Assembly: GCA_965116885.1 (NCBI GenBank)
Contig: OZ220741.1
Span: 2,016,001-2,080,000 of the forward strand
Direction: 5' to 3'
Length of the DNA: 64,000 bases
Source of the DNA: Candidatus Latescibacterota bacterium
GTDB taxonomy: Bacteria > Latescibacterota > UBA2968
Part shown: positions 38,474 through 52,472 of the stretch, in pieces
Layout of the letters: the number at the start of each line of letters is the position of its first letter
Numbering within the stretch: the first letter of the stretch is position 1
The notes under the pieces: generated by a model
Told to the model about the DNA's origin: nothing
What the model saw: the letters and a program-made list of their open reading frames with translations, nothing else
Database searches by the model: none
Position numbers and translations under genes: made by a program

Positions 38474-39327
38474 AGTCGATGCGGTCCTGGCTTTTTGTGC
38501 CGGGGCACCGGCAGCAGATGATTGACAAGGCCCTGGGTCTGCCAGCGGATGTGTTGATATTCGATCTGGAGGACGGCGTCCCGGAGGCTGAGAAGGGCGT
38601 TGCGCGCGGTCGTGTCGCTGCCGCGCTGGACGGCGCATGTGGCGGCTCAAGGCGGTTCGTTAGAGTTCACGAGGCCGGTTCATCCGAATTGGACGCCGAT
38701 TTGCAGGCGATCGCGCGTGCGGGGTTGCAGGGACTCGTGTTGCCCAAAGTGCAGGGACCGGAGGATGTGCTTCAGGTATGCCAGTGGTTGGATCGGCACG
38801 AGACCAGAGTGGGTATTCCATCTGGAGGCGTCGGGCTTCTGGCAATCATTGAGAGTGCCCGGGGTCTGGTTCAGGCGCCTGCGATCGCATCCGTCACATC
38901 CAGGCTGGTGGGGCTTATGTTCGGCGCGGAGGATTTCGCGTTGGATATGGGCCTCTTTTCGCATCCGGGACAGGGATTGGTCAACTACGCCCGATCGGCG
39001 CTGGCGGTGGCTGCGGCAAGCGGGAAAATTCGGGCTATAGACAAGGTGTTTACGGATATCAGCGATCCTGACGGGCTGTCCGTGGAGGCGCAACAGGCTC
39101 GGGATCTGGGATTTGCTGGAAAAGCCGTGATCCATCCGGGTCAGGTTGGGGCAGTGAATGAAATTTTCGGTCCCACGGAGGCCGAGGAGAGGTGGGCACG
39201 GCGAATTGTTGAGGCTTTTGAACGGCGGGCGGACGAAGGCCCGGCGACCGTGGATGGTCGGATGGTAGATAGGCCGATTCTGGAACGGGCGCGATGGATC
39301 CTGGATCGCCTTGAGAAAGAGGGTTAA
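38470..39327 (+). CDS. CitE/HpcH family CoA-ester lyase (citramalyl-CoA lyase-like)
   Basis: RSWLFVPG; DLEDGV; LPKV; IESARG; FGAEDF; GFAGKAVIHPGQ; DGRMVDRP; ATGA overlap with the upstream gene. Confidence 0.93.
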   Translation: MKSMRSWLFVPGHRQQMIDKALGLPADVLIFDLEDGVPEAEKGVARGRVAAALDGACGGSRRFVRVHEAGSSELDADLQAIARAGLQGLVLPKVQGPEDVLQVCQWLDRHETRVGIPSGGVGLLAIIESARGLVQAPAIASVTSRLVGLMFGAEDFALDMGLFSHPGQGLVNYARSALAVAAASGKIRAIDKVFTDISDPDGLSVEAQQARDLGFAGKAVIHPGQVGAVNEIFGPTEAEERWARRIVEAFERRADEGPATVDGRMVDRPILERARWILDRLEKEG

Positions 39328-39328
39328 C

Positions 39329-40534
39329 TTGCACGATCAAAACCAATATCCGCCCCTGGATGGAATAAGAATTGTCTCGGTGGAGCAGTTCGGAGCGGGT
39401 CCGTGGGCAACGATGATGCTGGCGGACCTCGGGGCGGAGATCATCAAGGTCGAGAATCCCGAGACTGGTGGCGATGTCGCGCGTTATGTGCCACCCTATA
39501 CCGCTGAACAGGATAGCGTGTATTTCCAGAGTTTCAACCGGAACAAGAAGAGTATGACGCTGAATTTGCAGCATATAGGAGGGCGGGAGGTGTTGCATCG
39601 GCTGGTGGGGATTTCGGATGGGGTGTTCAACAATCTGCGCGGAGACCTTCCGGCCCGGCTGGGTTTGGACTATCCGGCGCTGCGTGCGGTTAAGGCTTCA
39701 ATTGTGTGTTGCTCGCTTTCCGCGTTCGGACGGCATGGGTCTCGAGCGGGCGAACCGGGATACGATTATCTGATGCAGGGATATGCCGGATGGATGAGTC
39801 TTACGGGCGAGCCAGATGGTCCACCGACGAAGACAGGACTTTCCCTCGTGGATCTCGGCGCGGGCACCATGGCGTCTCTGGGCATGGTCAGCGCGATTTT
39901 TCGCGCCAGACAGACGGGCTTGGGGTGCGATGTAGATGTGAATTTGTTCGATACGGCGCTGGCGAATCTGGGATATGTGGCGGCGTGGTTCCTGACCAGA
40001 GGGTATCAGGCGCATCGGACGCCCGATTCTTCTCATCCATCACAGATCCCGTCTCAGGTGGTGCCGACTAAGGACGGATGGCTGGTGATCATGTGCGCAA
40101 AGGAGAAGTTCTTTCAAAATCTGGTACGCGTCCTGGGGGTGCCGGAACTGGCGGAAGATGCCCGGTTCTGCTCTTTTGCTGATCGCTTGGAGAATCGGGA
40201 TATTCTGGTTCCGATTCTGAAGGATCTCTTCCGCAAGAAGACAACCGACGATTGGCTGGCGCTGCTCAAGGGCAAGGTGCCCTGCGCGCCCGTGAATACG
40301 GTTGCGCAGGCTTTTGCCGATCCGCAGGTGGCCGAGGATAATATGATACTGGAGTTGCCGCATCCGGAGTTCGGAGCCGTCCGGGTGGTGGCGAGTCCCA
40401 TAGAGGTCGGCGGTGGATCAGTTGAACCCCGGCGCGGGCCTTCACTGGGGGAACACAACGAGCCGATTCTGAGTGAATATCTCGGATATTCAATGCCAGA
40501 GATTGAGAAACTCCGAAGCGATGGCGCCATTTGA
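39329..40534 (+). CDS. Family III CoA-transferase (CaiB/BaiF)
   Basis: PLDGIRIV..AGPWATMMLADLGAEIIKVE; NRNKKS; PGYD; LGEHN. Start is TTG at 39329 or 39311. Confidence 0.95.
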   Translation: MHDQNQYPPLDGIRIVSVEQFGAGPWATMMLADLGAEIIKVENPETGGDVARYVPPYTAEQDSVYFQSFNRNKKSMTLNLQHIGGREVLHRLVGISDGVFNNLRGDLPARLGLDYPALRAVKASIVCCSLSAFGRHGSRAGEPGYDYLMQGYAGWMSLTGEPDGPPTKTGLSLVDLGAGTMASLGMVSAIFRARQTGLGCDVDVNLFDTALANLGYVAAWFLTRGYQAHRTPDSSHPSQIPSQVVPTKDGWLVIMCAKEKFFQNLVRVLGVPELAEDARFCSFADRLENRDILVPILKDLFRKKTTDDWLALLKGKVPCAPVNTVAQAFADPQVAEDNMILELPHPEFGAVRVVASPIEVGGGSVEPRRGPSLGEHNEPILSEYLGYSMPEIEKLRSDGAI

Positions 40535-40538
40535 ATTT

Positions 40539-41906
40539 TCATGCATTGGGCAATTCTGTCCGCAATGCGAATTTTTCTTCGGGCGTTCCCGCGCCTTTTA
40601 ATACTTCCAGATACGCTTTGTGCAGTCGCTGTGCTTCGGCCATGTTTTGCTGGTTATACACGTTGTTCTTTTGCGCGAGGTCTGTTTGGAGGTTGTATAG
40701 TTCCGCTGGCCAGTTGGGTCCGCGATAGTGCAAGGTCCAGTTGCCGTCTGTGATGCTGGAACACACGCTGCGGTCTTCGCGCACGGGCAGGGTTGCCGAT
40801 GTGACGGCGACTTTTCGTTGTTCTTCTGTTTTTTCGCCTTTTAAGATGGGGGCGACGGATATCCCGTGCAGTCCATCGGGTTTTTTTATGCCTGCAAGGT
40901 CGAGTATTGTGGGCATGAAATCGACGGGTTGTGTTAAAACTTTTGTGCGTTTTCCCGCTGCGTTGCTGCCTGGTACATAGCCCATGAAAGCTGTGTGGGA
41001 TACTTCTTCGTAATAGGGCCAGTCGCCATCTGGTCCCTGTCCGCTTTTGCCAATGCGCCCGTGATCGCCGATGTAGTGTCCGTGGTCAGACATGAAGATT
41101 ACGGCTGTGTCTTCCCAGAGATTCAGGTTTTCTACTTTTTCCAACAGGTGTCCGACCCAGGTGTCCATGAGTGTGACTTCACCTGCGTATAGTGCGCGCG
41201 TGTGTTTGATTTCTTCTGCGCTCAGGTAATCGCAGTAGTCGTAAATGGGATGGTCGATGACTTCGCCTGTGTATCCGGGGTTGTACATATTGACGTAATG
41301 CGCGGGGGGGTCCCACGGTTCGTGGGGGTCAAAGGTGTCGATGTAGAGGAAGAATTTTTCGTGGGTGTGATTTGCTTCCAGCCAGTCTGCGGCGCGTTGC
41401 ATGGTGCGGGCGACAAAGGTGTCGCGTTCTGTTTCCCAGTGTGCTGCGCGCCAGCGATAGTGATATTGTTGCATGCGCTCAGGTGTGCGAATTTTTTCGG
41501 GGACTGATTCGAAGGGGACGGGTACATCGTCTGTGATTGAGCGGTCGCCTTCTTGCCCGCGAATCCATTCCCAGCCCAAAAATCCGCGGTCAAATTGATG
41601 TCCGTCTCTTACCAGGTGCGGTGTATCGCATAAGAGCATGGTGACATACCCCGCGTCTGTGAGGAGTTCGGATAAGATGATTTCATCTTCGGGGAGCGGT
41701 GTCCAGCCGCGAAAGGGAAATGTCAACCTGCCGGTCATCATGTCTGTGCGCGTGGGTATTGTTGGGAACGATGCCTGATACGCGCGGTCAAAGACCATGC
41801 AGCGTTTGGAGAATGCGTCTATATGCGGTGTGCGGATCCATGTATTTCCGTGACAGCCCAGGTGATCGTAACGCAGGGTGTCGGACATTACGACAATGAT
41901 GTTCAT
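40539..41906 (-). CDS. Sulfatase-like hydrolase (alkaline phosphatase superfamily) with Thr at the nucleophile position
   Basis: NIIVVMSDTLRYDH; SFPTIPTRTDMMTG; FDPHEPW; SDHG; ELYNL..D. Confidence 0.88.
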   Translation of the reverse strand: MNIIVVMSDTLRYDHLGCHGNTWIRTPHIDAFSKRCMVFDRAYQASFPTIPTRTDMMTGRLTFPFRGWTPLPEDEIILSELLTDAGYVTMLLCDTPHLVRDGHQFDRGFLGWEWIRGQEGDRSITDDVPVPFESVPEKIRTPERMQQYHYRWRAAHWETERDTFVARTMQRAADWLEANHTHEKFFLYIDTFDPHEPWDPPAHYVNMYNPGYTGEVIDHPIYDYCDYLSAEEIKHTRALYAGEVTLMDTWVGHLLEKVENLNLWEDTAVIFMSDHGHYIGDHGRIGKSGQGPDGDWPYYEEVSHTAFMGYVPGSNAAGKRTKVLTQPVDFMPTILDLAGIKKPDGLHGISVAPILKGEKTEEQRKVAVTSATLPVREDRSVCSSITDGNWTLHYRGPNWPAELYNLQTDLAQKNNVYNQQNMAEAQRLHKAYLEVLKGAGTPEEKFALRTELPNA

Positions 41907-42085
41907 GTGTGACCCTCCAAAAAAGGTTTCTGAGTGCTGAGAATTGAGCTTGGGTAAAATAATTCCTTTTTTTAATTCTGCAACACGAACGCCAGATGGT
42001 TCAAAATGGGGTTGCGGTTTGTATATTTTTTTATCTATGTTTTTGAGGGTGAATATTTACGATCACACGCATTTGGGAGGAGATG

Positions 42086-42970
42086 ATGGATTCTATTTAT
42101 GGGATTGTGCCGCCAGTGGTGACGCCGTTTCGGGAGGATGACTCGCTTGATGAGGGGGCGTTTCGTGCGGATATTCAGTATATGATTGAGACGGCGAAGG
42201 TGCATGGGTTGGCGGTGACGGGGAGTACGGGCGAGGGGCATACGCTCAGAGATGATGAGGTGAGGCAGTTGACGCAATGGGCCGTGGAGGAAGCCGATGG
42301 GCGAGTGCCTGTGATTACGGGGATTATTACGGACAGTACGAAGTCGGCAATTGAGCGCGGGAAGGCTGTGGCCGATTTGGGTCCGGTGGCGTTGCAGGTG
42401 ACGCCGGTGCATTATTTGTTTCGGCCAGACGATGATGCGATGGTCAGGCATTTTGAGGCGTTGTGTGAGGGGACGGGGTTGCCGGTGATGATTTACAATG
42501 TGGTGCCGTGGACGTATTTGTCGCCGGAGTTGTTGACGCGGATTATTGACGAGGTGGAGGGTGTGGTGGGGGTGAAGCAGAGTGCGGGAGATATGAAGTT
42601 GCTGGCTGATTTGTTGTTGATGGCCGGAGATCGAGCGCGGATTATGACTGCGGTAGATGCGTTGTTGTATCCGTCATTTGTTTTGGGTGCACACGGTGCG
42701 ATTGCGGCGATTTTGACGGCGGTGCCCGAGTTGTGTGTGGCGGTGTGGGATGCGTGTCGTGCAGGTGATCATAAAAAGGCGTTGGATTTACACGAGAAGT
42801 TGCTGCCGATTTGGAATGCGATTTTTGATGATAATTTGCCCGCAAATACCAAGTATGCGATGAAGCTACAGGGGCGCGATGGGGGTGTGCCGCGCCCGCC
42901 AATGCCACCGTCGTCTGCCGAGCAGGAGGGGCAGGTTCAGGCGGCATTGGAGAATGCAGGTGTGGTTTAA
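42086..42970 (+). CDS. Dihydrodipicolinate synthase family aldolase/dehydratase
   Basis: PPVVTPF; GSTGEG; IYNV; GVKQSAGD (Schiff-base Lys). Confidence 0.92.
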   Translation: MDSIYGIVPPVVTPFREDDSLDEGAFRADIQYMIETAKVHGLAVTGSTGEGHTLRDDEVRQLTQWAVEEADGRVPVITGIITDSTKSAIERGKAVADLGPVALQVTPVHYLFRPDDDAMVRHFEALCEGTGLPVMIYNVVPWTYLSPELLTRIIDEVEGVVGVKQSAGDMKLLADLLLMAGDRARIMTAVDALLYPSFVLGAHGAIAAILTAVPELCVAVWDACRAGDHKKALDLHEKLLPIWNAIFDDNLPANTKYAMKLQGRDGGVPRPPMPPSSAEQEGQVQAALENAGVV

Positions 42971-44343
42971 TCTTTGGACTTCATCCGGATTGGCATTAAT
43001 AATGCCAGCCATTCCGCATTCAGAGGCGTGCGCAAGATGATCGCTTTTCCCTGTTCTCTAAATTCCATTGTGATTTCATCGCTGTCTTCAATATCCAGCG
43101 CATGCAGGACCTGTTTTAGATACGCGAAGTTCACGGCGAACCTGAGTGTGTCTTCTGATGGTGTTTCAAATTTGGCATTGAGGGGGACCTGAAATATCCA
43201 ATCCGCAATGCCTCCTGGCGAGTCGTTATCTTTCGCGTCGTGGAGATATTGGAATTTGCCATTGTCTTCTCGAGCATATCCCGTATCTCGGGATGTGAGA
43301 AAGGTTATGGTTTGGGTCAGTGGCGAGAGGTGTAGATCTACCCGGGGGCGATATTGCCAGGTATCTGATTCTGGATGCCGCGCTTCCATGAAGTCTTGTA
43401 GTAAGTTCAGGGCGTGTGCTAGAAGAGCCGAGGGGATGGAAACGCGCATTGAGGGATCTTCTTGTGGGATGACCTGTTCGTATTTGACATAAGGACCTTC
43501 GATCAGGGGTACCTGAAGGGTTGTGCCGTTGCTCTGGATTTCTGCGGTCTCTTCCGCAATTTTCAATGTGGCCTGTTCGGGGAGTTGGATGTCTGACCAG
43601 GGTCCGAGGACAATGGGTGCGGCCAATTCCGAGAGGCTTTGCAATGTGCGAATGATCATGATATGTCCGTTGGTCGCAGTCGCGCGACCGCCTGTGTCGA
43701 GACATACGCCCTGCAAGATCGGGCGTTTTTCATCGTCGCTTACAAAACCAATTACTTTTTTGAGCGCGTCCATGTCCGCGCGGTCCAGTTCAGTTGTTTG
43801 TGTTTGAATATCCGACATTTTGTGTAGCTCTCCTTTTAATTTGAGACGCGCACGCCTCAGGCGCCCGCGCACGGTTTCTACCGTGAGGTTCAGGAGGTCG
43901 GCTGTTTCCGCGTAAGAATACCCTTTGAAATAGTGGTGGGCGATTACCTGGCGATGTTCAGCCGATAGGATGCGTAGCGCGGCTCGTACAACATGTTTGA
44001 TTTCTTCTTCTGTGTGCGCTGCAGGTTCTGGATAAAATGTTTCTTCCAGTCGCAATTGCACGGCTCGACGGCGATGATGGGAGTTGACGGCGTTGCGTAC
44101 GATGCTGTGTAACCAGGGTCTAAATCGGTCGGGTTTGCGAAGTTGATGCAGATTTTCGTACGCTTTGATAAATACGATTTGGACCAGGTCTTCTACGTCG
44201 TCAACCAATCGCACAGATTGGGCAATTTGGGCATACACATATCGCGAATAGCGTTGCACCAGAACTGCGAATGCTTTGCGGTCGCCGTCCAGAATTCTGG
44301 CGATGAGCGCGCTGTCTTCAATGTGTTCCACGAATTGCTCCAA
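42967..44343 (-). CDS. ECF sigma-70 factor fused to DNA polymerase III beta-clamp domains II+III
   Basis: aa 1-172 are sigma regions 2 and 4 (DDVEDLVQIVFIKAY..FRPWLHSIVRN; GYSYAETADLLNLTVETVRGRLRRAR). aa ~190-455 carry DnaN motifs (VSDDEKRPILQGV, ATNGH, LIEGPYVKYEQVIP, FAVNFAYL, LLMPIRM). Confidence 0.88.
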   Translation of the reverse strand: MEQFVEHIEDSALIARILDGDRKAFAVLVQRYSRYVYAQIAQSVRLVDDVEDLVQIVFIKAYENLHQLRKPDRFRPWLHSIVRNAVNSHHRRRAVQLRLEETFYPEPAAHTEEEIKHVVRAALRILSAEHRQVIAHHYFKGYSYAETADLLNLTVETVRGRLRRARLKLKGELHKMSDIQTQTTELDRADMDALKKVIGFVSDDEKRPILQGVCLDTGGRATATNGHIMIIRTLQSLSELAAPIVLGPWSDIQLPEQATLKIAEETAEIQSNGTTLQVPLIEGPYVKYEQVIPQEDPSMRVSIPSALLAHALNLLQDFMEARHPESDTWQYRPRVDLHLSPLTQTITFLTSRDTGYAREDNGKFQYLHDAKDNDSPGGIADWIFQVPLNAKFETPSEDTLRFAVNFAYLKQVLHALDIEDSDEITMEFREQGKAIILRTPLNAEWLALLMPIRMKSKD

Positions 44344-44374
44344 GAGAAATCAATCCACGCGTGTTTAAATAAAA

Positions 44375-44400
44375 GACGAGTCTGTATCCCGAAAGTGTCG
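44375..44400 (-). promoter_or_regulatory. Candidate ECF-type promoter of the sigma-clamp gene
   Basis: Minus strand CGACAC-16 nt-CGTC, between the upstream terminator and the start codon. Confidence 0.4.
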
Positions 44401-44409
44401 TATGGATAT

Positions 44410-44441
44410 AAAAAAAGCCCCGGATTGTTCCGAGGCTTTTT
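44410..44441. terminator. Intrinsic terminator of the PhyH gene at 44456
   Basis: Minus strand AAAAAGCCTCGGA-ACAA-TCCGGGGCTTTTTTT. Confidence 0.85.
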
Positions 44442-44455
44442 GATTTTGGGGACTT

Positions 44456-45274
44456 TTAAGCATTGGGACACTTAAAGTCCAGGCCGTCCATGATGACTTT
44501 GATCTGATCGGATGGTTTAAAATAATCTGTCGCCGTATATTTTTCGCCCAGGTCGCCCATTAACCGACGGCGGCGAGGTGTCATGCGGGATAGCACTTCT
44601 TCGGGACATTTTTCATAATCGTAGGGCCTGCACCACATTTGTCCATACCGGAAGGTGATGCTGCGCCGCACGACGTCTGTGTGATTTGGTGCGACGGCGT
44701 GCCACATGGTGTTGGGGAAGATCGCGCAATCTCCCGCTTCGGCAATGAGTTGTATTGCACCGGGCGGTGTTTCATTGCGGGATCCTTTGGGCATTGGGCG
44801 GCGATGACTGCCGGGTACCAGACAGAAGTTTGCACAATTTTCGTGTGGAATATCGGTGAGGAAGAACTGTATTTTGAAGTTTAATGGCAGACTGTCTGGC
44901 GTGACCCGAATTTGTGCCAGTGAGCGTCCGGCATCGGTGTGCCAGCCGATCAAGTTATCGGATTTGTCATTTGGATAGCGTACGTAAATTTGCGATCCCA
45001 TGATCTGGATATAAGGTCCCATCAGGTCGAGGATGACGCCAAATAAGTTGGGGTGGTCCATTAATCCGTCGATCCGATTCGTTCGGAAGAGCGTTTGGAT
45101 GATGGTATAGACGCCTTTTTCGAGTACTTTGGGATATTTGGCTTCGTACTTCGCGATTACTTCATTGGCCGCGTCGAGATATTCCGCTGCTTCGTCTTTG
45201 GGAATTACATTTTTAAGATGTAAATATCCCTGTTCCTGCCACTGTTGCCGCATGGATTTGCTCAAGTGGTTCAT
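44456..45274 (-). CDS. PhyH family dioxygenase
   Basis: QGYLHL; WHTD; LVPGSH; AGD..WH. Confidence 0.92.
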   Translation of the reverse strand: MNHLSKSMRQQWQEQGYLHLKNVIPKDEAAEYLDAANEVIAKYEAKYPKVLEKGVYTIIQTLFRTNRIDGLMDHPNLFGVILDLMGPYIQIMGSQIYVRYPNDKSDNLIGWHTDAGRSLAQIRVTPDSLPLNFKIQFFLTDIPHENCANFCLVPGSHRRPMPKGSRNETPPGAIQLIAEAGDCAIFPNTMWHAVAPNHTDVVRRSITFRYGQMWCRPYDYEKCPEEVLSRMTPRRRRLMGDLGEKYTATDYFKPSDQIKVIMDGLDFKCPNA

Positions 45275-45387
45275 GTCAAAGCTCCTGTTTTTTGAATGTT
45301 GTTTTAGACCTTAGCCCTTGCCTGATGGTGTATAATGCGATATTTTCTCGATGAAACTATCGGAAAACAATATAAAAGGAGGCTTTT

Positions 45388-45708
45388 ATGCTCGTGTTGA
45401 CAACCCCCAATATTGAAGGGAAAACTATTGATAGCTATCAGGGCATTGTGACGGGTGAAGCTATTTTGGGTGCCAATTTTTTTAAGGATATCTTTGCGAG
45501 TCTCCGCGATATTGTCGGCGGGCGTTCAGCCGCGTATGAGTCAGAACTCCGCAGAGCCAAAGATCTCGCCATTGAGGAAATGGTCGAACAGGCACGCGGT
45601 ATGGGCGCCAATGCCGTCATTGGCGTGGATCTCGACTACGATACGGTTGGCGAGGGCAGTATGCTTATGGTCAGTGCCAGTGGCACGGCTGTTACTTATC
45701 GGAATTGA
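45388..45708 (+). CDS. ybjQ: YbjQ/UPF0145 family protein
   Basis: [59 protein letters not shown]. Confidence 0.95.
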
Positions 45709-46584
45709 GACGTTCGTTATTTTGTATTGTGTTTTGGAAAATTTCGATTCTTTCACCACGGTTTGCGATTCGTAAATGGATCCGCTTCGGAGTGCGCCCG
45801 GCCAGGGCATTCTCACGGGTACGGCTTCCACGCGCGGGATGTTGGTCGGTTCGCCGCGCACGATTGTTTCATTGAACAAATCCCAGTTGTTCAGGCCCGA
45901 TAGGGGATATGCATCGATCGCGCAGTATTGAAATAGGAGCAGTCGGCGGGGTTTGTCGGATGTATTGGATACTGATCCGTGTAGCATGCGCACGTGATGG
46001 ATTGTGATGCCGCCTGCTTTTACCATTACGGGCACGGCGCCTTTGTCGCTAAAGGTCGAGTCGGTTACGGCGCCGCAGAAATGGCCGTCGAGGTGATGGT
46101 CGTAAATTGGCCCTTTGTGTGAGCCGGGAATGACGAGCAAGGGGCCGTTTTCTTCTGTCATGTCGTCGAGTACTATGCCCACGGCGAGCAAGTCGTCGTT
46201 GCTATGGGGATAAAATGCCCAGTCCTGATGCCACTCGACCGGGCTGCCGTAGCCGGGTTGTTTCATGTTGAGCTTGTTGCCATTGCACCGCAGGCCGTAT
46301 CCGATCAATTGCGATACGATTCCCAAAATTTTCTCGTGATGCAGGGTCTTGCGATATACTTCATGTAGCAAAATCGGACTTTTTAAGCGTCTCAGTTTTG
46401 GGTTTTCGGGTGTGTGTCCGGGTTCGAGGTCGAATGCTTCGGTGTGATCGGTGACCTCCCGCGATTTTTCCACATATTCATCGGTTATCCGCCGCAGGTC
46501 GTTGACTTCGTCTTCACTGAGCACGTTCTCCACACCGAGATATCCGTGTTCGTGGTAAAACGCAATTTGTTCTTGAGTGAGCAT
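45541..46584 (-). CDS. PhyH family dioxygenase (C-terminal ~58 aa probably stop-loss read-through)
   Basis: [21 protein letters not shown]. The ORF overlaps ybjQ by 168 nt. Confidence 0.88.
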
Positions 46585-46600
46585 GGGTTACTCCTTCTTT

Positions 46601-48073
46601 TTATGGATGTCGGTATTTGTTTCCAAATTTTTCGCGCAGTAAGACCGCGCCTTCTGCACGGTCGGTTTCTGCAAGGCGGTCGCAATAGTCTTCGAAAGCT
46701 CCCCAGGTGTGCATTGGTCCGCCTTCTTGCATGACTGTCCAGAGGGGGTCGTTGTCGTAGGGCCGCGGCATGGTTTCCATCATGTGGTCGTGCCAGTTCA
46801 TCAGCCGATACGCAGCCTCGCGGCATATATCGGGATTTTCAGCGGCTACGTCGCGCATTTCATAGGGGTCGTCTGATAGATTAAATAATAATTCGCGCGG
46901 GTAAAGTCGATATCCGTCGTGATAGGTGCGGATGTAGATCCAGTCGTCAAAGCGGACAGCCCGCTGACATACATGCGCGCACTGGCTCAAGATCAATTCG
47001 CTGCGCCCGGCATCTGCGCCTTCGGTAATGACCGGGGCATAACTTTCGCCATCCCACAACGCCTGTTTTTGCCCGCATAGAAGATCGGATAGTGTGGGCG
47101 CTAAATCAATATTGTAATGCAGGCCCTCGTCTGTGATTCCAGACTGCCCGCCGGGCCATTTTACGATCATAGGAATATGGCAGGTCGCCTGATCGGCTGT
47201 TCCGTGTTCGCCGTATATGCCGAGTTCGCCCATGTTTTCGCCGTGATCTGCGCTGATGATGATCGCGGTGTCGTCCAGTACGCCTTTGTTTTCTAATATT
47301 TCCACAATGATGGCAATTTGATCATCTACGTACCGGATCGCGGTGTCATATCCATCGATCATCCGTCGCAGGTCGTCCATGTTGTCCAGGCGCCCGGGGT
47401 GCCGGGGAAAGCGCGGATTGGGGCGGTCGTTCCACATCATAATGTCCTGCGCGGTGTGGGGACCGACGAGTTTTTTGTGTTCTTCCAGTAATTCGGGGGT
47501 CAGCCAGTCCGGCAGGGGGTCATCGGCAAAGGGTTCGCCGTATTCCGCTGGCGCGCGATAGGGTGTGTGTACATCCCAGTAGTTGATGTGTAAAAACCAT
47601 TTGTCGTCCGAGGCATTGTCATTTAGCCACTTTTCGACTACAGGTGTTACTTCTTCGGCTGATTCCATGCCGCCTTTGCCGGTGTTGTGTATTTCGTTGA
47701 AGCCCGCGTAAAAATGCCACGCGGCATGCCGCTGTCCAAAGGGGCTGATCATGGATGTTTTAAAGCCCTGACGTTGCAGGAATCCGGCCAGTCCCTCGTT
47801 TGCCAGTCGATCTCGAAATCCGCGGTTTGGTCCATTTATGCGCCGTTCTGACGCTGTGCCGCCGTGCCCTACGACGCCCGAATGAATGCCGAATTGCCCG
47901 GAGTAAAATGCCGTGCGCGATGGCAAGCAGGGTGCGTCTGTTGTATAGACCTGGTTAAATCGAATGCCTTCGGCTGCAATTTTGTCGATTGTAGGCGATG
48001 TGTTGCGGTGATATCCGTAACAGCCGAGGTGTGTGGGATTTAAGGCGTCGAGATCGAGGTACAGGATGCGCAT
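46601..48073 (-). CDS. Cys-type sulfatase
   Basis: TPTIDKIA; CLPSR formylglycine motif; ADHGE; HIPMIVKWPG; ELLFNL..DPYE. Confidence 0.93.
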   Translation of the reverse strand: MRILYLDLDALNPTHLGCYGYHRNTSPTIDKIAAEGIRFNQVYTTDAPCLPSRTAFYSGQFGIHSGVVGHGGTASERRINGPNRGFRDRLANEGLAGFLQRQGFKTSMISPFGQRHAAWHFYAGFNEIHNTGKGGMESAEEVTPVVEKWLNDNASDDKWFLHINYWDVHTPYRAPAEYGEPFADDPLPDWLTPELLEEHKKLVGPHTAQDIMMWNDRPNPRFPRHPGRLDNMDDLRRMIDGYDTAIRYVDDQIAIIVEILENKGVLDDTAIIISADHGENMGELGIYGEHGTADQATCHIPMIVKWPGGQSGITDEGLHYNIDLAPTLSDLLCGQKQALWDGESYAPVITEGADAGRSELILSQCAHVCQRAVRFDDWIYIRTYHDGYRLYPRELLFNLSDDPYEMRDVAAENPDICREAAYRLMNWHDHMMETMPRPYDNDPLWTVMQEGGPMHTWGAFEDYCDRLAETDRAEGAVLLREKFGNKYRHP

Positions 48074-48153
48074 AGATGTTCCTTTTCTGTTTTGGTTAGT
48101 TTAAGGGATAATTTACCTTTAAAATCGTTTCTTAGCAAGTTTATCAGTGGTCT

Positions 48154-48233
48154 GTAGGGGACGGCCCCTGTGCCGTCCCGCACGACCACCTGTGTCTGAC
48201 CTTCTGCGGGCGACCACAGGGGGTCGCCCCTAC
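48154..48233. repeat. GTAG-family REP doublet, copy 3 (units in the opposite order)
   Basis: GTAGGGGACGGCCCCTGTGCCGTCCCG ... CGGGCGACCACAGGGGGTCGCCCCTAC. Confidence 0.85.
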
Positions 48234-48307
48234 AAAACGGATTAACTTGACGGATCGGCCCGTTGACATTATCCTGCATCGCACAAACAATAGCGAGGAG
48301 GCCGCAG

Positions 48308-49111
48308 ATGATAGAGCCGACAATTTCTCTTTCACAGGAACAAATTCATTCATTTCACGAGGATGGATTCCTCGTTCTCAATGCGATTACCACGGAGGAG
48401 GAGGTGGAACAGCTTCGGGAAATTTACGATCGGCTTTTTTCGGATCGCACGGGGTGGGATCAGGGGAGTCAGTTTGATCTGGCGGGTACCGATGAGGATG
48501 ATCAACCACGCCTTCCGCAAATGCTCGGTCCCAGCCGTTTTGCGCCCGAGTTGAAGGATACGCTCTATCTGGCTAATGCGCGGGCGATTGCGCGGCAGTT
48601 GCTGGGTTCTGATATGCTCGATAGGAATGGCGAACATATGATTTACAAGCCGCCGCGTATTGGTGCGGCAACGCCGTGGCATCAGGATCAGGCGTATCAC
48701 GATCCTGCGATGGCGTATAAAGGTGTAAATTTCTGGATGCCGCTGGACGATGCGACGGTTGAGTCGGGTTGTTTGCAGTTTATTCCGGGTAGCCACAAGC
48801 TCGATGTTTTGCCGCATCACAGCATTAACCGGGATCCGCGCATTCACGGTCTTGAGGTTGATGATCCCGAACAGTATGCTGAACGGGCAGTTCCCTGTCC
48901 TGTTGCGGCTGGTGGGGCTTCGCTTCACGCGTGTTATATGCTGCATTACGCAGAGCCAAATCGCACAGATGTTCCGCGGAGGGCTTATACGCTTACGTTC
49001 AGGACGCCACCCCAGACGCGCGATAAACCCGTTGATGCATATTGGCAAAAGAACAAACAGACGGCGCGGCAAACAAGGGCGAATGCGTATCAAACAAGGG
49101 GTTCTATGTAG
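48308..49111 (+). CDS. PhyH family dioxygenase
   Basis: FHEDGFL; PWHQD; WMPLDD; FIPGSH; LHYA; GAGGAGG RBS. Confidence 0.93.
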   Translation: MIEPTISLSQEQIHSFHEDGFLVLNAITTEEEVEQLREIYDRLFSDRTGWDQGSQFDLAGTDEDDQPRLPQMLGPSRFAPELKDTLYLANARAIARQLLGSDMLDRNGEHMIYKPPRIGAATPWHQDQAYHDPAMAYKGVNFWMPLDDATVESGCLQFIPGSHKLDVLPHHSINRDPRIHGLEVDDPEQYAERAVPCPVAAGGASLHACYMLHYAEPNRTDVPRRAYTLTFRTPPQTRDKPVDAYWQKNKQTARQTRANAYQTRGSM

Positions 49112-49123
49112 TTGTTTATTTGG

Positions 49124-49212
49124 ACCTACCCCCCTAACCCCCCTTCCTACGAGGAAGGGGGGATCAGGTCTCCCCTCCCCGTCTCGGGGAGGGGCCGGGG
49201 GAGGGGTCAGAA
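49124..49212. repeat. C/G-run palindromic repeat, copy 2 (doublet)
   Basis: CCCCCTTCCT-ACG-AGGAAGGGGG hairpin followed by the 45-nt unit shared with 29153. Confidence 0.85.
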
Positions 49213-49223
49213 AAGGAGATTTT

Positions 49224-50231
49224 ATGAAAGTTCTCGTTACAGGCGCCGCCGGTCAGGTCGGTTGCCGACTGGTGCGCCAGTTGCTTGACCAAAATTGTGA
49301 AGTGCGGGGGACTATTCTTCCCGACGATCCCGCGCGCAGCCGTCTCGACGGTGTCGATATTGAGTTGCGCGAGGGGGATTTGACGGATTTATCTTATGTT
49401 AAAGATGCTGTCGAGGGCGTGGATGCGGTTATTCATACCGCCAATCTCGTCGGTCCGCATTTTGAACTCAACAATCAGATCAATATCCAGGTTACACGCG
49501 CGTGTGAGGGCGTTGCCGATCGTCTCGAACGCTATGTTTATACCAGTTCTTCGGGTGTGTTTCCCAATAATGGCGAAAATGTTCCGTGTGCTTATCACCC
49601 GGTGGATGAATTGCATCCCAAACGGCCGGATGGCGAGTATTCTATGTCCAAGTATTTCGGCGAGGTGATGGCAGAACGCGCGAATCGGGAGACGGGTTTG
49701 CGCTATTCGATTGTGCGTCCGAGTCACGTTTTGTCCGGGACTAAAATTTTGAACCAGTTCAGTGTTGCGCGCGTGGTCAATTTGTTGAAGAAAAGTCAGG
49801 AAAGACCCGGTACTGAACTCTATATGGCCGATGGTACAGAACTGTGGCACGATATCGAAGATAGGGCGGTTTCTCCGCAGCAACCGTGTAGTATTACGGA
49901 TGAGGACGGACGCCCATGGCTTTATCAACCGCAGGATGCCCGCGATATTGCCCATTGTCTGGTTTGTGCGCTGAATTCTGGCGCAGCACTGGGTGAGTCG
50001 TTCAATGCCGGCGCGCCAGAGCCTTTTCCTTTTACCGAAGGGGCGCGGTTGATTGGAGAAAGAAGAGGGGTTGATCCGCTTGAGGTCAGGGTTCCGCTAC
50101 AGTATATGTATGACCATGCGATTGGCAAGGCGAAGAGTCTGATTGATTATCGTCCGCAAGGCGATTTGAATGCGATGATTGAGTCGGCTTTTGCGTGTGA
50201 AGAAGGTGCGACGGATTATACCTGGGATTGA
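49224..50231 (+). CDS. NAD-dependent epimerase/dehydratase
   Basis: VLVTGAAGQVG; YSMSK; AAGGAG RBS. Confidence 0.92.
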   Translation: MKVLVTGAAGQVGCRLVRQLLDQNCEVRGTILPDDPARSRLDGVDIELREGDLTDLSYVKDAVEGVDAVIHTANLVGPHFELNNQINIQVTRACEGVADRLERYVYTSSSGVFPNNGENVPCAYHPVDELHPKRPDGEYSMSKYFGEVMAERANRETGLRYSIVRPSHVLSGTKILNQFSVARVVNLLKKSQERPGTELYMADGTELWHDIEDRAVSPQQPCSITDEDGRPWLYQPQDARDIAHCLVCALNSGAALGESFNAGAPEPFPFTEGARLIGERRGVDPLEVRVPLQYMYDHAIGKAKSLIDYRPQGDLNAMIESAFACEEGATDYTWD

Positions 50232-51250
50232 AGGCGCGTTCGCAAGGCATCTATCAGATTATCTGATGGTTCGCAGGGGAGTTCTACGGGCCGATGTTCC
50301 AATGCGCTTGTGTAGATTCCCAGGATGATGTTGAAGTCGCGCAAGGCGAGATTGTGGTTCAGGGGATGGACTTTTGTGTCGTCTTCTATCCATTGTAGCA
50401 TGGCGTCTGTCATGGCGGCTTGTCCGAGTATGTCTTCGTCCGGGTATTCGTGCGTGCCCCGTTCTATGTGGCCATCGATGCCTGTTTCCCACGACCACAT
50501 GGTCCAGTGTACATATCCCCGCGTGCCATAGGCGGCGATCCGCTTGTGGACATTGGTGCGGTCTTCATTTGTTACGCGGGGGGCATAAGGTCCCGAGATG
50601 AGTTGGGCGCGCAGGCCATCGGCGTATTCTATTGCTCCGATGCACTGGTCGGGCGCGAAGTGCTTTTTGGGCGTGTCTTCCAGGCCGTCTGTGCCAGAGG
50701 CTTGTCCCATTACTTTTGTGGGGAGGCCGTCTGGATGAAAGGCGGCAATGGATTGTAGCGCATGGGTGCCCTGATACGCCAGGTTCATGCCGCAACTCGC
50801 TTCGATAAATCGGATGTCGCCGATTTTTCCCTCCTGTACAATATTTTGCAAATGCTGTCTGCGCGGGTGAAAGTGTAGCTGGTGATTTACCGCGATTTTG
50901 GTTTTTGCGGTTGCTGCAAAGTTTTTGATCGCGCGCCAGTCTTCTCCCTGAATTGCTATGGGTTTTTCCACGAGGACAGCGGGTACTCCGGCGTTTTCCG
51001 CGGCTTCGAATACTTCCAGTCGCACACTGGGCGGGGTATTTACGTGTACCAGGTCTGGCTGTTCTTTTTCAAACATTTCCCGATAGTCCAAATACCTTAT
51101 ATCGACGTCAAATGTATCGCCAAATGCGTGCAGATTTTCTTCTGTTCGCGTGGAGATTGCGGCGAGTTTGCCGTGCGTTACGTGTCGATACGCTTCCGCC
51201 AACCCCCGCGCGCGTCCGCCGCTTACGCCGATTATTGCACATTTAAGCAT
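50216..51250 (-). CDS. Gfo/Idh/MocA oxidoreductase
   Basis: AIIGVSG; YLDYREM..PDLV; VEKPIA; HAL. Confidence 0.9.
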   Translation of the reverse strand: MLKCAIIGVSGGRARGLAEAYRHVTHGKLAAISTRTEENLHAFGDTFDVDIRYLDYREMFEKEQPDLVHVNTPPSVRLEVFEAAENAGVPAVLVEKPIAIQGEDWRAIKNFAATAKTKIAVNHQLHFHPRRQHLQNIVQEGKIGDIRFIEASCGMNLAYQGTHALQSIAAFHPDGLPTKVMGQASGTDGLEDTPKKHFAPDQCIGAIEYADGLRAQLISGPYAPRVTNEDRTNVHKRIAAYGTRGYVHWTMWSWETGIDGHIERGTHEYPDEDILGQAAMTDAMLQWIEDDTKVHPLNHNLALRDFNIILGIYTSALEHRPVELPCEPSDNLIDALRTRLQSQV

Positions 51251-51267
51251 TGAGTTCTTCCTCCAAA

Positions 51268-51352
51268 AGTCAGTAGTCAGTAGTCAGTCCAACCAGTCCC
51301 CAGTCCCTCTTTTTTATCTGCATTTATCTGCGTTTATCTGCGTCATCTGCGG
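51268..51352. repeat. Short tandem repeats (AGTCAGT x3; CCAGTCC x2; TTATCTGCGT-like x4)
   Basis: AGTCAGTAGTCAGTAGTCAGT; TTATCTGCATTTATCTGCGTTTATCTGCGTCATCTGCGG. Confidence 0.75.
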
Positions 51353-51354
51353 AT

Positions 51355-52374
51355 TCATGCCCACGGTTTCAATACGACTTTTGCACATTCGCCCGTGGTT
51401 TGCAATTCCCAGGCTTTTTGTACGTCTTCGAGTGAGAATGTGTGTGAGATCATCCGGTTCAATTTGTCTGTGTTTGCGCGGACGACTTGCATGAGTTTTG
51501 GTACGTCTTTTAAGTTGTAATGCCAGGAGCCGACGAGTGTGATGCCTTTTCGGATCATGTCCTGGCTGATGCGCAAGGGGGTGTCTTCTCCGCATTCGCC
51601 GACGAATGCGACCTGTCCGCGCCGTCGCACGGTGTCGATGCACATGCGGTGTGCAGATACGGCGCCCGAGCAATCTACGGCGGCATCTACGCCAATGCCG
51701 TTGGTGAGGTCCATTATTTGTTGCAGGGCGTTTTCTTCGAGGGGATCGATTGCTTCGTCTGCGCCCAGTTCGAGTGCTTTTTCGCGCCGATAGGGGTTGA
51801 TATCTACGGCTATTACACGTGCGCCCAGGTGTTTGCCGTTGATTACGCCTCCAAGTCCCACGGGACCGAGTCCGGTGACCATGAATGTGTCGTAGGCGTT
51901 TATTTGCATGCGCTGTATGGCGCCAAATGTGGGACCCAGGCCGCAGCAGGCCATTCCGCCGTGTTCGTAAGAGACGTCGTCTGGGATTTTTGGGAGTAGC
52001 CAGTCGGGTTTCAGGAGGTACTGCGCCATGGTGGCTCGGCCTTCGTTTCTACCCGTGAATTCGGCGAAGTTTGCGCTTTGTTGACAGTGGATATAATCGC
52101 CGCTGATACACAATGGGCAGGTACCACACGGATATTGGGGCATTACGGCTACGCGGTCGCCTACTGATACGCGCCCGGGTTGGGCGATTTCGACGACTTC
52201 ACCGGCTGCTTCGTGTCCCAGGGAGGTGGTTTCTCTGCCACCTGTAAATCCTTTGTATTCTGTACACATCGGCGCGGCGTGAACTTTTACCAGTACCCAG
52301 TTGTCTTTTGGCTTTGGGTCTGGTACGTCTATGACGCCGCCTTTGCGTTCACCAAATATTGCAGCTGCTTTCAT
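51355..52374 (-). CDS. Zinc-dependent alcohol dehydrogenase (MDR family)
   Basis: C..GHE..G; CGTCPLC..C structural Zn site; GLGPVG. Confidence 0.95.
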   Translation of the reverse strand: MKAAAIFGERKGGVIDVPDPKPKDNWVLVKVHAAPMCTEYKGFTGGRETTSLGHEAAGEVVEIAQPGRVSVGDRVAVMPQYPCGTCPLCISGDYIHCQQSANFAEFTGRNEGRATMAQYLLKPDWLLPKIPDDVSYEHGGMACCGLGPTFGAIQRMQINAYDTFMVTGLGPVGLGGVINGKHLGARVIAVDINPYRREKALELGADEAIDPLEENALQQIMDLTNGIGVDAAVDCSGAVSAHRMCIDTVRRRGQVAFVGECGEDTPLRISQDMIRKGITLVGSWHYNLKDVPKLMQVVRANTDKLNRMISHTFSLEDVQKAWELQTTGECAKVVLKPWA

Positions 52375-52472
52375 TTTTACCTCCAGAATGGGGTTGACAA
52401 GGGTCATGTCTCGCTATTCATTCACATTCGATAGAATATTTCGAACGATAGAGTTCAATGGGAGAATATGTT

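Follow-up and report, generated by a model that had tools for sequence, protein, structure and literature searches.

The window analysed here, a 64-kb stretch of DNA from Candidatus Latescibacterota bacterium (assembly GCA_965116885.1, contig OZ220741.1), encodes on its minus strand an extracytoplasmic function (ECF) sigma factor that continues, within one open reading frame (ORF), into a two-domain relative of the bacterial replication clamp DnaN (the beta clamp). With somewhat better than even confidence, and largely by analogy, we read the protein as an ECF (group 4) sigma factor that controls its own gene and whose regulatory domain would be its C-terminal part, a diverged beta-clamp paralogue referred to here as a pseudo-clamp. 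Like the extensions of other ECF groups that lack an anti-sigma factor, the pseudo-clamp would act in cis as the input domain of the sigma factor, and its retained cleft would be the likely input site, binding a short linear peptide. The preferred candidate ligand is the protein's own Q96-x-x-hydrophobic motif in the linker between sigma regions 2 and 4 (the sigma2-sigma4 linker), with a peptide of another protein as the alternative. The sigma2-sigma4 linker has to enter RNA polymerase, and the sigma factor would stay inactive for as long as the motif occupies the cleft and is not displaced by a competitor. Among the ways in which ECF sigma factors are regulated, C-terminal extensions rank second in frequency; they are present in 19 groups, usually without an anti-sigma factor, and the type of extension tracks the core sequence (excerpts of PMC7826278). 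By analogy with these groups, we read the pseudo-clamp as a cis-regulatory domain.

The gene is a single open frame on the minus strand (42967..44343, stop codon included) that encodes 458 amino acids (aa) from a TTG. It corresponds to the uninterrupted ORF of a preliminary description of this DNA, which had named no strand; the plus-strand frame across the same interval is riddled with stops. Translation probably begins four codons past the TTG, at the GTG 44331-44329, because a GGAG lies 6 nt ahead of it and the 454-aa homologues in the databases begin at this position; the protein would thus be 454 aa long. Residue numbers throughout refer to the 458-aa (TTG) version. The start and the two sigma regions lie as follows:

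44329..44341, minus strand: GGAG and probable start (GGAG 44341-44338, 6-nt spacer, GTG 44331-44329)
44062..44262, minus strand: sigma region 2, residues 28-94 (Pfam PF04542 Sigma70_r2, E 5.9e-13, 48.9 bits)
43837..43989, minus strand: sigma region 4, residues 119-169 (Pfam PF08281 Sigma70_r4_2, E 2.4e-12, 46.7 bits)

A complete ECF sigma factor occupies residues 1-175, in agreement with the regions 2 and 4 assigned in the preliminary description. The matches to PF04542 and PF08281, together with one to PF07638 (Sigma70_ECF, 29.1 bits), all exceed the cutoffs of their own models, and NCBIfam TIGR02937 is matched with 92.6 bits (cutoff 42.9). No further Pfam sigma region was matched in the 458-aa protein; significant matches to regions 2 and 4 alone are the domain composition of ECF group 4. 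The nearest solved chains of this part are ECF sigma factors, headed by E. coli sigma-E (1or7_A, E 3.7e-15), and both AlphaFold models of the full-length protein draw residues 10 to 175/176 as all-helical.

Judged from profile comparisons and structure prediction, residues 181-455 correspond, by homology and by predicted fold, to domains II and III of DnaN, domain I being absent:

43450..43803, minus strand: clamp domain II-like half, residues 181-298 (hhalign to DnaN, AlphaFold secondary structure, Foldseek)
42979..43449, minus strand: clamp domain III-like half, residues 299-455 (hhalign, AlphaFold, Foldseek)

The hidden Markov model (HMM) searches that had been proposed for this protein gave a divided result. 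Both sigma models were significant, and so were profile and hhalign comparisons with DnaN, whereas the two clamp models stayed below the Pfam gathering threshold for the single sequence (DNA_pol3_beta_3, PF02768, 16.2 bits; DNA_pol3_beta_2, PF02767, 14.9 bits; cutoff 27). Among 24 homologues, an E value of 0.1 or better is reached by PF02768 in 14 and by PF02767 in five. Using the C-terminal 287 aa, phmmer detects the C. difficile clamp 7ybd_A at 1.4e-4; a 4-sequence profile searched against the PDB finds the same chain at 1.3e-9, with beta clamps accounting for 20 of the 21 matches. Comparison with a 370-aa DnaN by hhalign yields a probability of 98.2 and an E value of 5e-14 and covers DnaN 133-369. 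The 24-sequence family profile aligned to E. coli DnaN yields 94.8 and 5e-8; the meaningful part of this alignment sets residues 179-454 against beta 123-366, and the remainder is a spurious run-on into sigma region 4. The match therefore spans DnaN 123/133 to 366/369, with the sigma factor taking the N-terminus, and the protein is not a three-domain DnaN.

Structure prediction points to the same relationship. AlphaFold model 1, built from 24 sequences, has a mean predicted local distance difference test score (pLDDT) of 80.5 and a predicted template modelling score (pTM) of 0.57; for model 2, built from 52 sequences, the values are 88.3 and 0.69, and the module lies largely above a pLDDT of 90. 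Foldseek searches of both models against the PDB each returned at least 500 matches; among the matches listed all are beta clamps, the best E values there being 1e-14 (7ybd) and 2.9e-12 (3f1v_A), one per model. Template modelling scores normalised to the target reach 0.74-0.77 against the beta chains 8vam_G and 8vat_G (248-249 residues). The C-terminal part is thus predicted to have the fold of clamp domains II and III, as the preliminary description had proposed when it assigned a DnaN II+III module lacking domain I. The nearest clusters in the ESM Atlas (score 0.85) are short 'putative DNA polymerase III beta' proteins of Fusobacteriota and phages, which we regard as leads only.

By sequence, the module retains the equivalents of the peptide-binding cleft of the beta clamp. 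All five clamp motifs named in the preliminary description are present, and hhalign sets each of them against the E. coli beta segment with which that description had paired it. Four of the aligned segments are:

43657..43674, minus strand: TNGHIM, residues 224-229, opposite E. coli beta T172-L177 (hhalign)
43465..43503, minus strand: IEGPYVKYEQVIP, residues 281-293, opposite E. coli beta V237-P249 (hhalign)
43117..43134, minus strand: VNFAYL, residues 404-409, opposite E. coli beta F319-V324 (hhalign)
42982..42999, minus strand: LMPIRM, residues 449-454, opposite E. coli beta V361-L366 (hhalign)

The individual pairs (module = beta) are V286=P242, Y288=Y244, V291=V247, P293=P249, N405=N320 and Y408=Y323, and M450, P451, I452, R453 and M454 correspond to beta M362-L366. 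In E. coli beta, L177, P242, V247 and M362 touch the delta subunit of the clamp loader, and P363, M364 and L366 matter for binding (excerpts of PMC2685083); V247, M362 and P363 line the peptide site (excerpts of PMC7261172). In the 24-sequence alignment of the family, G226, Y288, V291, P293, P451 and R453 are present in 24/24 proteins, V286 in 23/24 and M450 in 22/24, and 23/24 have L or M at position 229. H227, the equivalent of beta His175, is variable (H in 13, A in 10, S in one). Conservation extends to 40 diverse fused proteins (P451 in 39, P293 in 37, N405 in 35 and M450 in 33 of the 40). The retained pocket claimed in the preliminary description thus holds at sequence level in both alignments, and its residues are conserved among the homologues.

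The fusion of sigma factor and module is old and conserved and is no assembly artefact, since it is carried in one frame at all 25 loci found in other genomes and in 43 further representatives. A protein search returned 52 matches, 35 of which align over 92% or more of the query, with identities of 38-99%. The 25 species-level loci (L001-L025), many on complete chromosomes, come from a genome scan seeded with a 7-sequence alignment; by title, 22 belong to Latescibacterota/Latescibacteria, two to Gemmatimonadota/Gemmatimonas and one to an uncultured bacterium. The ORF measures 453-486 aa at 23 of them, the two exceptions being L016, which stops early (372 aa), and L024, which is cut by the contig end. 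An extension of ~280 aa follows region 4 in 24/24 aligned homologues, 25/25 loci and the 43 further representatives and exceeds the 50 aa above which an ECF extension is recognised. The search for the same architecture suggested in the preliminary description has therefore located it at 25 loci and in at least 43 further clusters at 50% identity, and with 25/25 loci in frame the fusion is neither unique to this assembly nor interrupted by a stop at the junction.

A profile search of 1.84 billion representatives returned 2579 matches at E<=1e-3, 121 at 1e-10 and 26 at 1e-30. Local HMMs sorted 147 listed proteins (P0054-P0200) into 43 with sigma factor and module, 23 with a near-complete module alone, 52 of three-domain length and 29 fragments or others, and Pfam annotation of 69 of the 147 agrees with these classes. 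The family comprises at least 45 clusters at 50% identity. In a quick maximum-likelihood tree, 57 two-domain modules (40 fused, 17 alone) split from 20 canonical DnaN proteins with a Shimodaira-Hasegawa-like approximate likelihood ratio (SH-aLRT) of 99. Module-only forms are dispersed among the fused ones, requiring 15 changes, no fewer than in shuffles.

Three proteins from these searches deviate from the common layout. P0044 (589 aa, on a 2.6-kb contig) has an ECF sigma factor in front of a DnaN with all three domains, which passes all three Pfam models; its clamp part clusters with canonical DnaN (SH-aLRT 98), so that it represents either an independent fusion or a chimera of the 2.6-kb contig. 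P0084 (348 aa) and P0120 (317 aa) consist of the module alone followed by a C-terminal SEC-C zinc-binding motif (PF02810, E about 1e-9). PADLOC reported no defence-system match for the fusion protein or for a stand-alone module.

The region upstream of the gene bears on its proposed autoregulation. It contains two elements:

44405..44445, minus strand: intrinsic terminator, a hairpin with a U-run (RNA fold -18.9 kcal/mol, z -6.96, 0/200 shuffles as good)
44375..44399, minus strand: ECF-type promoter-like motif GAyACTTT-N13-CrTC (GACACTTT ... CGTC), recognised by conservation across loci

The hairpin closes the upstream PhyH-like gene (44456-45274); a simple terminator scan has no entry there. 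Because this terminator isolates the sigma gene from upstream transcription, the gene is a separate, monocistronic transcription unit. The DHDPS-family gene downstream is convergent with it and overlaps it by 4 nt. The promoter motif has its sole match in the window at this site (0.04 matches expected; at least one match in 4 of 100 shuffles), and a scan of the same 64 kb that allowed one mismatch found no second site. It stands directly upstream of the fusion gene at 20 of the 25 loci, including subfamilies that are ~40% identical in protein; as the pattern was derived from the same sequences in which it was counted, its weight rests on this conservation across subfamilies. ECF promoters have an AAC-type -35 and a CGT-type -10 element, the consensus against which we judged the motif, and its likeness to them suggests that the fusion gene is autoregulated. 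Extra exact matches on the minus strand at L017 (2009-2033, antisense inside a DegT/DnrJ-type aminotransferase gene), L020 (2026-2050) and L022 (1787-1811) were set aside as probable chance hits or a shared relic.

Pfam scans of the neighbouring genes, which covered the window, another subfamily and L023, revealed no anti-sigma domain, a gene neighbourhood that matches the one expected of an extension-regulated sigma factor. Within the 64-kb window there is no other sigma factor and no clamp homologue, canonical dnaN included. The neighbours in the window encode PhyH dioxygenases, a DHDPS-family protein, sulfatases, a CoA-transferase and an aldolase, another subfamily has a UMPH-1 nucleotidase and HU downstream of the fusion gene, and among the 25 loci no neighbour cluster is common to all subfamilies. 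At L023 (3640-9176), the fusion gene lies between two ECF sigma genes extended by tetratricopeptide repeats (TPR; 567 and 634 aa), forming a cluster of three extension-bearing ECF sigma factors.

The link between cleft and sigma factor suggested here involves a second conserved element, located in the sigma2-sigma4 linker; a third conserved feature marks the junction between sigma factor and module:

44047..44058, minus strand: linker motif Q96-L-R-L99 (Q-x-x-hydrophobic) in the sigma2-sigma4 linker (translation and alignments)
43816..43833, minus strand: possible internal translation start at the sigma/module junction (GGAG 43833-43830, 11-nt spacer, ATG of Met176 43818-43816)

The linker motif is specific to the family, where it has the form R-R-R-x-x-Q96-x-x-hydrophobic; Q96 is shared by 38 of the 40 diverse fused proteins and by 90% or more of a set of 52. 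The linker reads QLRLEE in the window and QIRFEQ, QLRWED, QPALF, QPLLL, QPVLL, QETLPL, QLHLPF, QLDLL or QLNLL elsewhere; only two of 12 other ECF sigma factors have Q in this column, one of them P0044. Clamp-binding motifs take the form Q-phi-x-L-F (QL[S/D]LF) or Q-phi-x-L-x-L, with Q in subsite II and LF in subsite I of the clamp (excerpts of bioRxiv 10.64898/2026.05.27.728225), and the linker motif resembles the start of such a motif. The retained cleft and the co-occurring clamp-binding-like peptide in the linker together suggest a lock. A conserved 'QTxEL' at the start of the module was also considered as a clamp-binding motif and rejected, because these residues form the first beta-strand of domain II.

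Several observations weigh against this proposal. The cleft residues also serve to join domain II to domain III and may have been retained for structural reasons. In the subfamily of the window, the linker reads QLRLEE, which is not hydrophobic at the fifth or sixth position as a true clamp-binding motif would be. Both models end a long helix (71-102/103) with the linker motif, at a pLDDT of about 66-71 that then falls to 44-47, and neither draws the motif as an extended peptide in the cleft; at full length, their pTM is just 0.57 and 0.69. Linkers of ECF sigma factors contact RNA polymerase or template DNA, and Q96 could do likewise.

Besides its missing first domain, the module departs from DnaN in features that concern the ability of clamps to surround DNA. 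In both models no helix is drawn between strands 244-246 and 258-262, the place occupied in beta by the second channel-lining helix of domain II; the pLDDT there is 83-94, and the stretch is 4-6 residues shorter than in beta and contains proline. An insertion of seven residues (DFMEARHP) follows the first helix of domain III, with H323 and P324 in 24/24 proteins, at what we take to be the place of the beta dimer-interface residues I272 and L273. A longer insertion lies further downstream in domain III:

43198..43290, minus strand: family-specific domain III insertion R352-W382 with RDxGY and DW motifs (gap opposite DnaN in hhalign)

This insertion of ~30 aa is without counterpart in canonical DnaN. 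G355, Y356 and W382 are each present in 24/24 proteins, and W382 in 35/40; model 1 gives the insertion a pLDDT of 62/58 and model 2 one of 85/79. The aligned channel helices are less rich in Lys and Arg than those of DnaN, a weak hint given that canonical DnaN aligned poorly in hmmalign and one helix stayed unaligned. Because the second domain II helix is missing in the models and an insertion occupies the presumed interface site, it is unlikely, as far as the models go, that the module encircles DNA as a ring.

These departures bear most directly on a DNA-tethered sigma factor, in which three modules would assemble head to tail into a six-domain ring like those of PCNA or gp45, or two into an open arc, that slides along DNA and delivers the fused sigma factor to promoters; such a protein would be the fused counterpart of T4 gp45 with gp55/gp33 or of phage Mu MuC with the host clamp. 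The two-domain module has the size of PCNA and gp45 protomers, it retains the cleft used by the clamp loader, and P0044, unless chimeric, provides a second, phylogenetically independent ECF fusion, in that case to a full three-domain DnaN. Transcription that depends on a clamp has a precedent in T4 late genes, where gp45 works with gp55/gp33. A further one comes from phage Mu, whose MuC needs the beta clamp (excerpts of bioRxiv 10.1101/2025.01.04.631326). However, neither model contains the second inner helix that domain II has in beta, the inner helices are less basic than their DnaN counterparts in a rough alignment, the insertion at the end of the first domain III helix falls on the presumed dimer-interface site, and among the Foldseek matches listed all are dimeric beta clamps and none is PCNA or gp45. 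We therefore regard tethering as very unlikely. A sigma factor coupled to the replisome, the first idea of the preliminary description, is rather improbable as well. Here, the cleft would bind the clamp-binding motifs of polymerases, clamp-loader delta, Hda or MutS/L, or the module would pair with the host DnaN. If this were true, the sigma factor would report replication stress or free clamp partners, and clamp-targeting antibiotics would be possible inputs. The retained equivalents of V247, M362 and P363, which contact partners in E. coli (excerpts of PMC2685083 and PMC7261172), are in line with such a role, but the cleft equivalent of His175 is unconserved (H 13, A 10, S 1 of 24), no replication or repair genes lie nearby, and the gene context varies between subfamilies.

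A different kind of explanation invokes two products of one gene. The GGAG-N9-11-ATG at Met176 may be an internal translation start, which would give a free clamp-like module acting in trans as an anti-sigma-like inhibitor or decoy; the 'stand-alone' modules of the databases would then be this product or one half of a split gene. Met176 is present in 24/24 and 33/40 aligned proteins, and a GGAG precedes its ATG by 9-11 nt in the window and at 25/25 loci, compared with 16 of 210 other in-frame ATGs of these genes. Moreover, the 17 module-only proteins, scattered among fused forms in the tree as described above, start at or near the aligned Met176. On the other side, the GGAG is partly dictated by the conserved residues [K/G/E]-E, the 25 related loci amount to only about 5-6 independent lineages, the 11-nt spacer of the window is long, and module-only entries may be artefacts of gene calling or contig edges. 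We give this explanation, which is compatible with the pseudo-clamp as a cis-regulatory domain, a fairly low chance. Similarly low is the chance of a self-contained switch built from a clamp and its binding motif, in which the cleft would grip the linker, a competing replisome or repair peptide would free the sigma factor, and free pseudo-clamp made from Met176 would tune the system in trans. Finally, the extension might be inert or structural, stabilising the sigma factor or offering a surface for dimerisation or scaffolding, with the cleft residues kept for folding. The same residues build the domain II/III junction in every clamp, no partner emerged from the analysis, and the single sequence scores below the Pfam thresholds. 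Strong conservation over deep divergence argues against an inert role, and the invariant family motifs RHP, RDxGY and DW, together with the linker motif, suggest selected surfaces; an inert role therefore seems fairly unlikely to us.

Among known systems, the pseudo-clamp fusion most resembles the ECF sigma factors with regulatory extensions, such as ECF41, ECF56, ECF294 and ECF295 (SnoaL-like), ECF42 (TPR), ECF238 (Cys-rich) and ECF264 (DUF1835). It shares with them the sigma2-sigma4 core followed by an extension of >50 aa, the absence of an anti-sigma gene nearby, a putative ECF-like promoter of its own and an extension that co-varies with family-specific core and linker residues; unlike theirs, its extension has a predicted beta-clamp fold. 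With DnaN (PF00712+PF02767+PF02768) the module has in common the predicted fold of domains II and III and the equivalents of G174, P242 (here Val), V247, P249, N320, M362, P363 and R365. It differs from DnaN in the missing domain I, the scores below Pfam gathering thresholds, the domain II second helix missing in the models, the ~30-aa insertion and RHP loop of domain III, the fusion to a sigma factor and its separate clade. P0044 likewise has an N-terminal ECF sigma factor and a C-terminal clamp, and the two sigma parts are 33% identical; in contrast, all three of its DnaN domains exceed the Pfam thresholds and it groups with canonical DnaN.

The T4 proteins gp45 and gp55/gp33 also combine a clamp fold with promoter-specific transcription through a motif and a cleft. 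There, however, the clamp is a separate ring loaded onto DNA and the motif sits on the transcription factor, whereas here the clamp-like part is fused and truncated, probably forms no ring and has the motif-like peptide in its own chain. The same likeness and differences apply to MuC and the beta clamp of phage Mu (excerpts of bioRxiv 10.1101/2025.01.04.631326). In the full-text literature searched, comprising work outside subscription journals, we found no paper on ECF sigma factors fused to a clamp or DnaN, in keeping with the remark in the preliminary description that no such fusion had been characterised; only the Mu work was relevant. Neither a clamp nor a DNA polymerase is mentioned in the main text and one supplementary file of the 2021 ECF re-classification, and a 2022 review of non-canonical ECF sigma factors does not mention a clamp-fold extension. 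Extension-bearing ECF sigma factors are a known kind, and among the literature searched the beta-clamp extension is a new fold class.

Each new type of fused regulatory domain brings a new input logic. If our reading is right, this would be the first case found in which the scaffold and cleft of a replication clamp are re-used for transcription control within one polypeptide, and it would provide a testable link from replication or repair signals, or from clamp-targeting compounds, to gene expression. A switch operated by displacement of the linker would, if true, let transcription read the replication state. The fusion is widespread in Latescibacterota, of which no member has been cultured, and may therefore be an important regulator in this phylum. 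From an evolutionary point of view, the two-domain clamp bears on the question of how clamps with differing domain numbers came about.

The surroundings of the gene in the window offer some further observations. The interval 39311-52407 looks like an island for the degradation of a sulfated substrate: it holds sulfatase genes at 40539-41906 and 46601-48073 and PhyH genes at 44456-45274, 45541-46584 and 48263-49111, together with genes for a CoA-transferase, an HpcH/HpaI aldolase and the DHDPS-family protein. None of these genes is kept beside the sigma gene in other subfamilies. Within the island, an ORF of the YbjQ_1 family on the plus strand (45388-45708, E 5e-40) overlaps, as the ORFs are called, the 3' end of the long minus-strand PhyH ORF at 45541-46584, in which the PhyH Pfam match is limited to residues 10-214.

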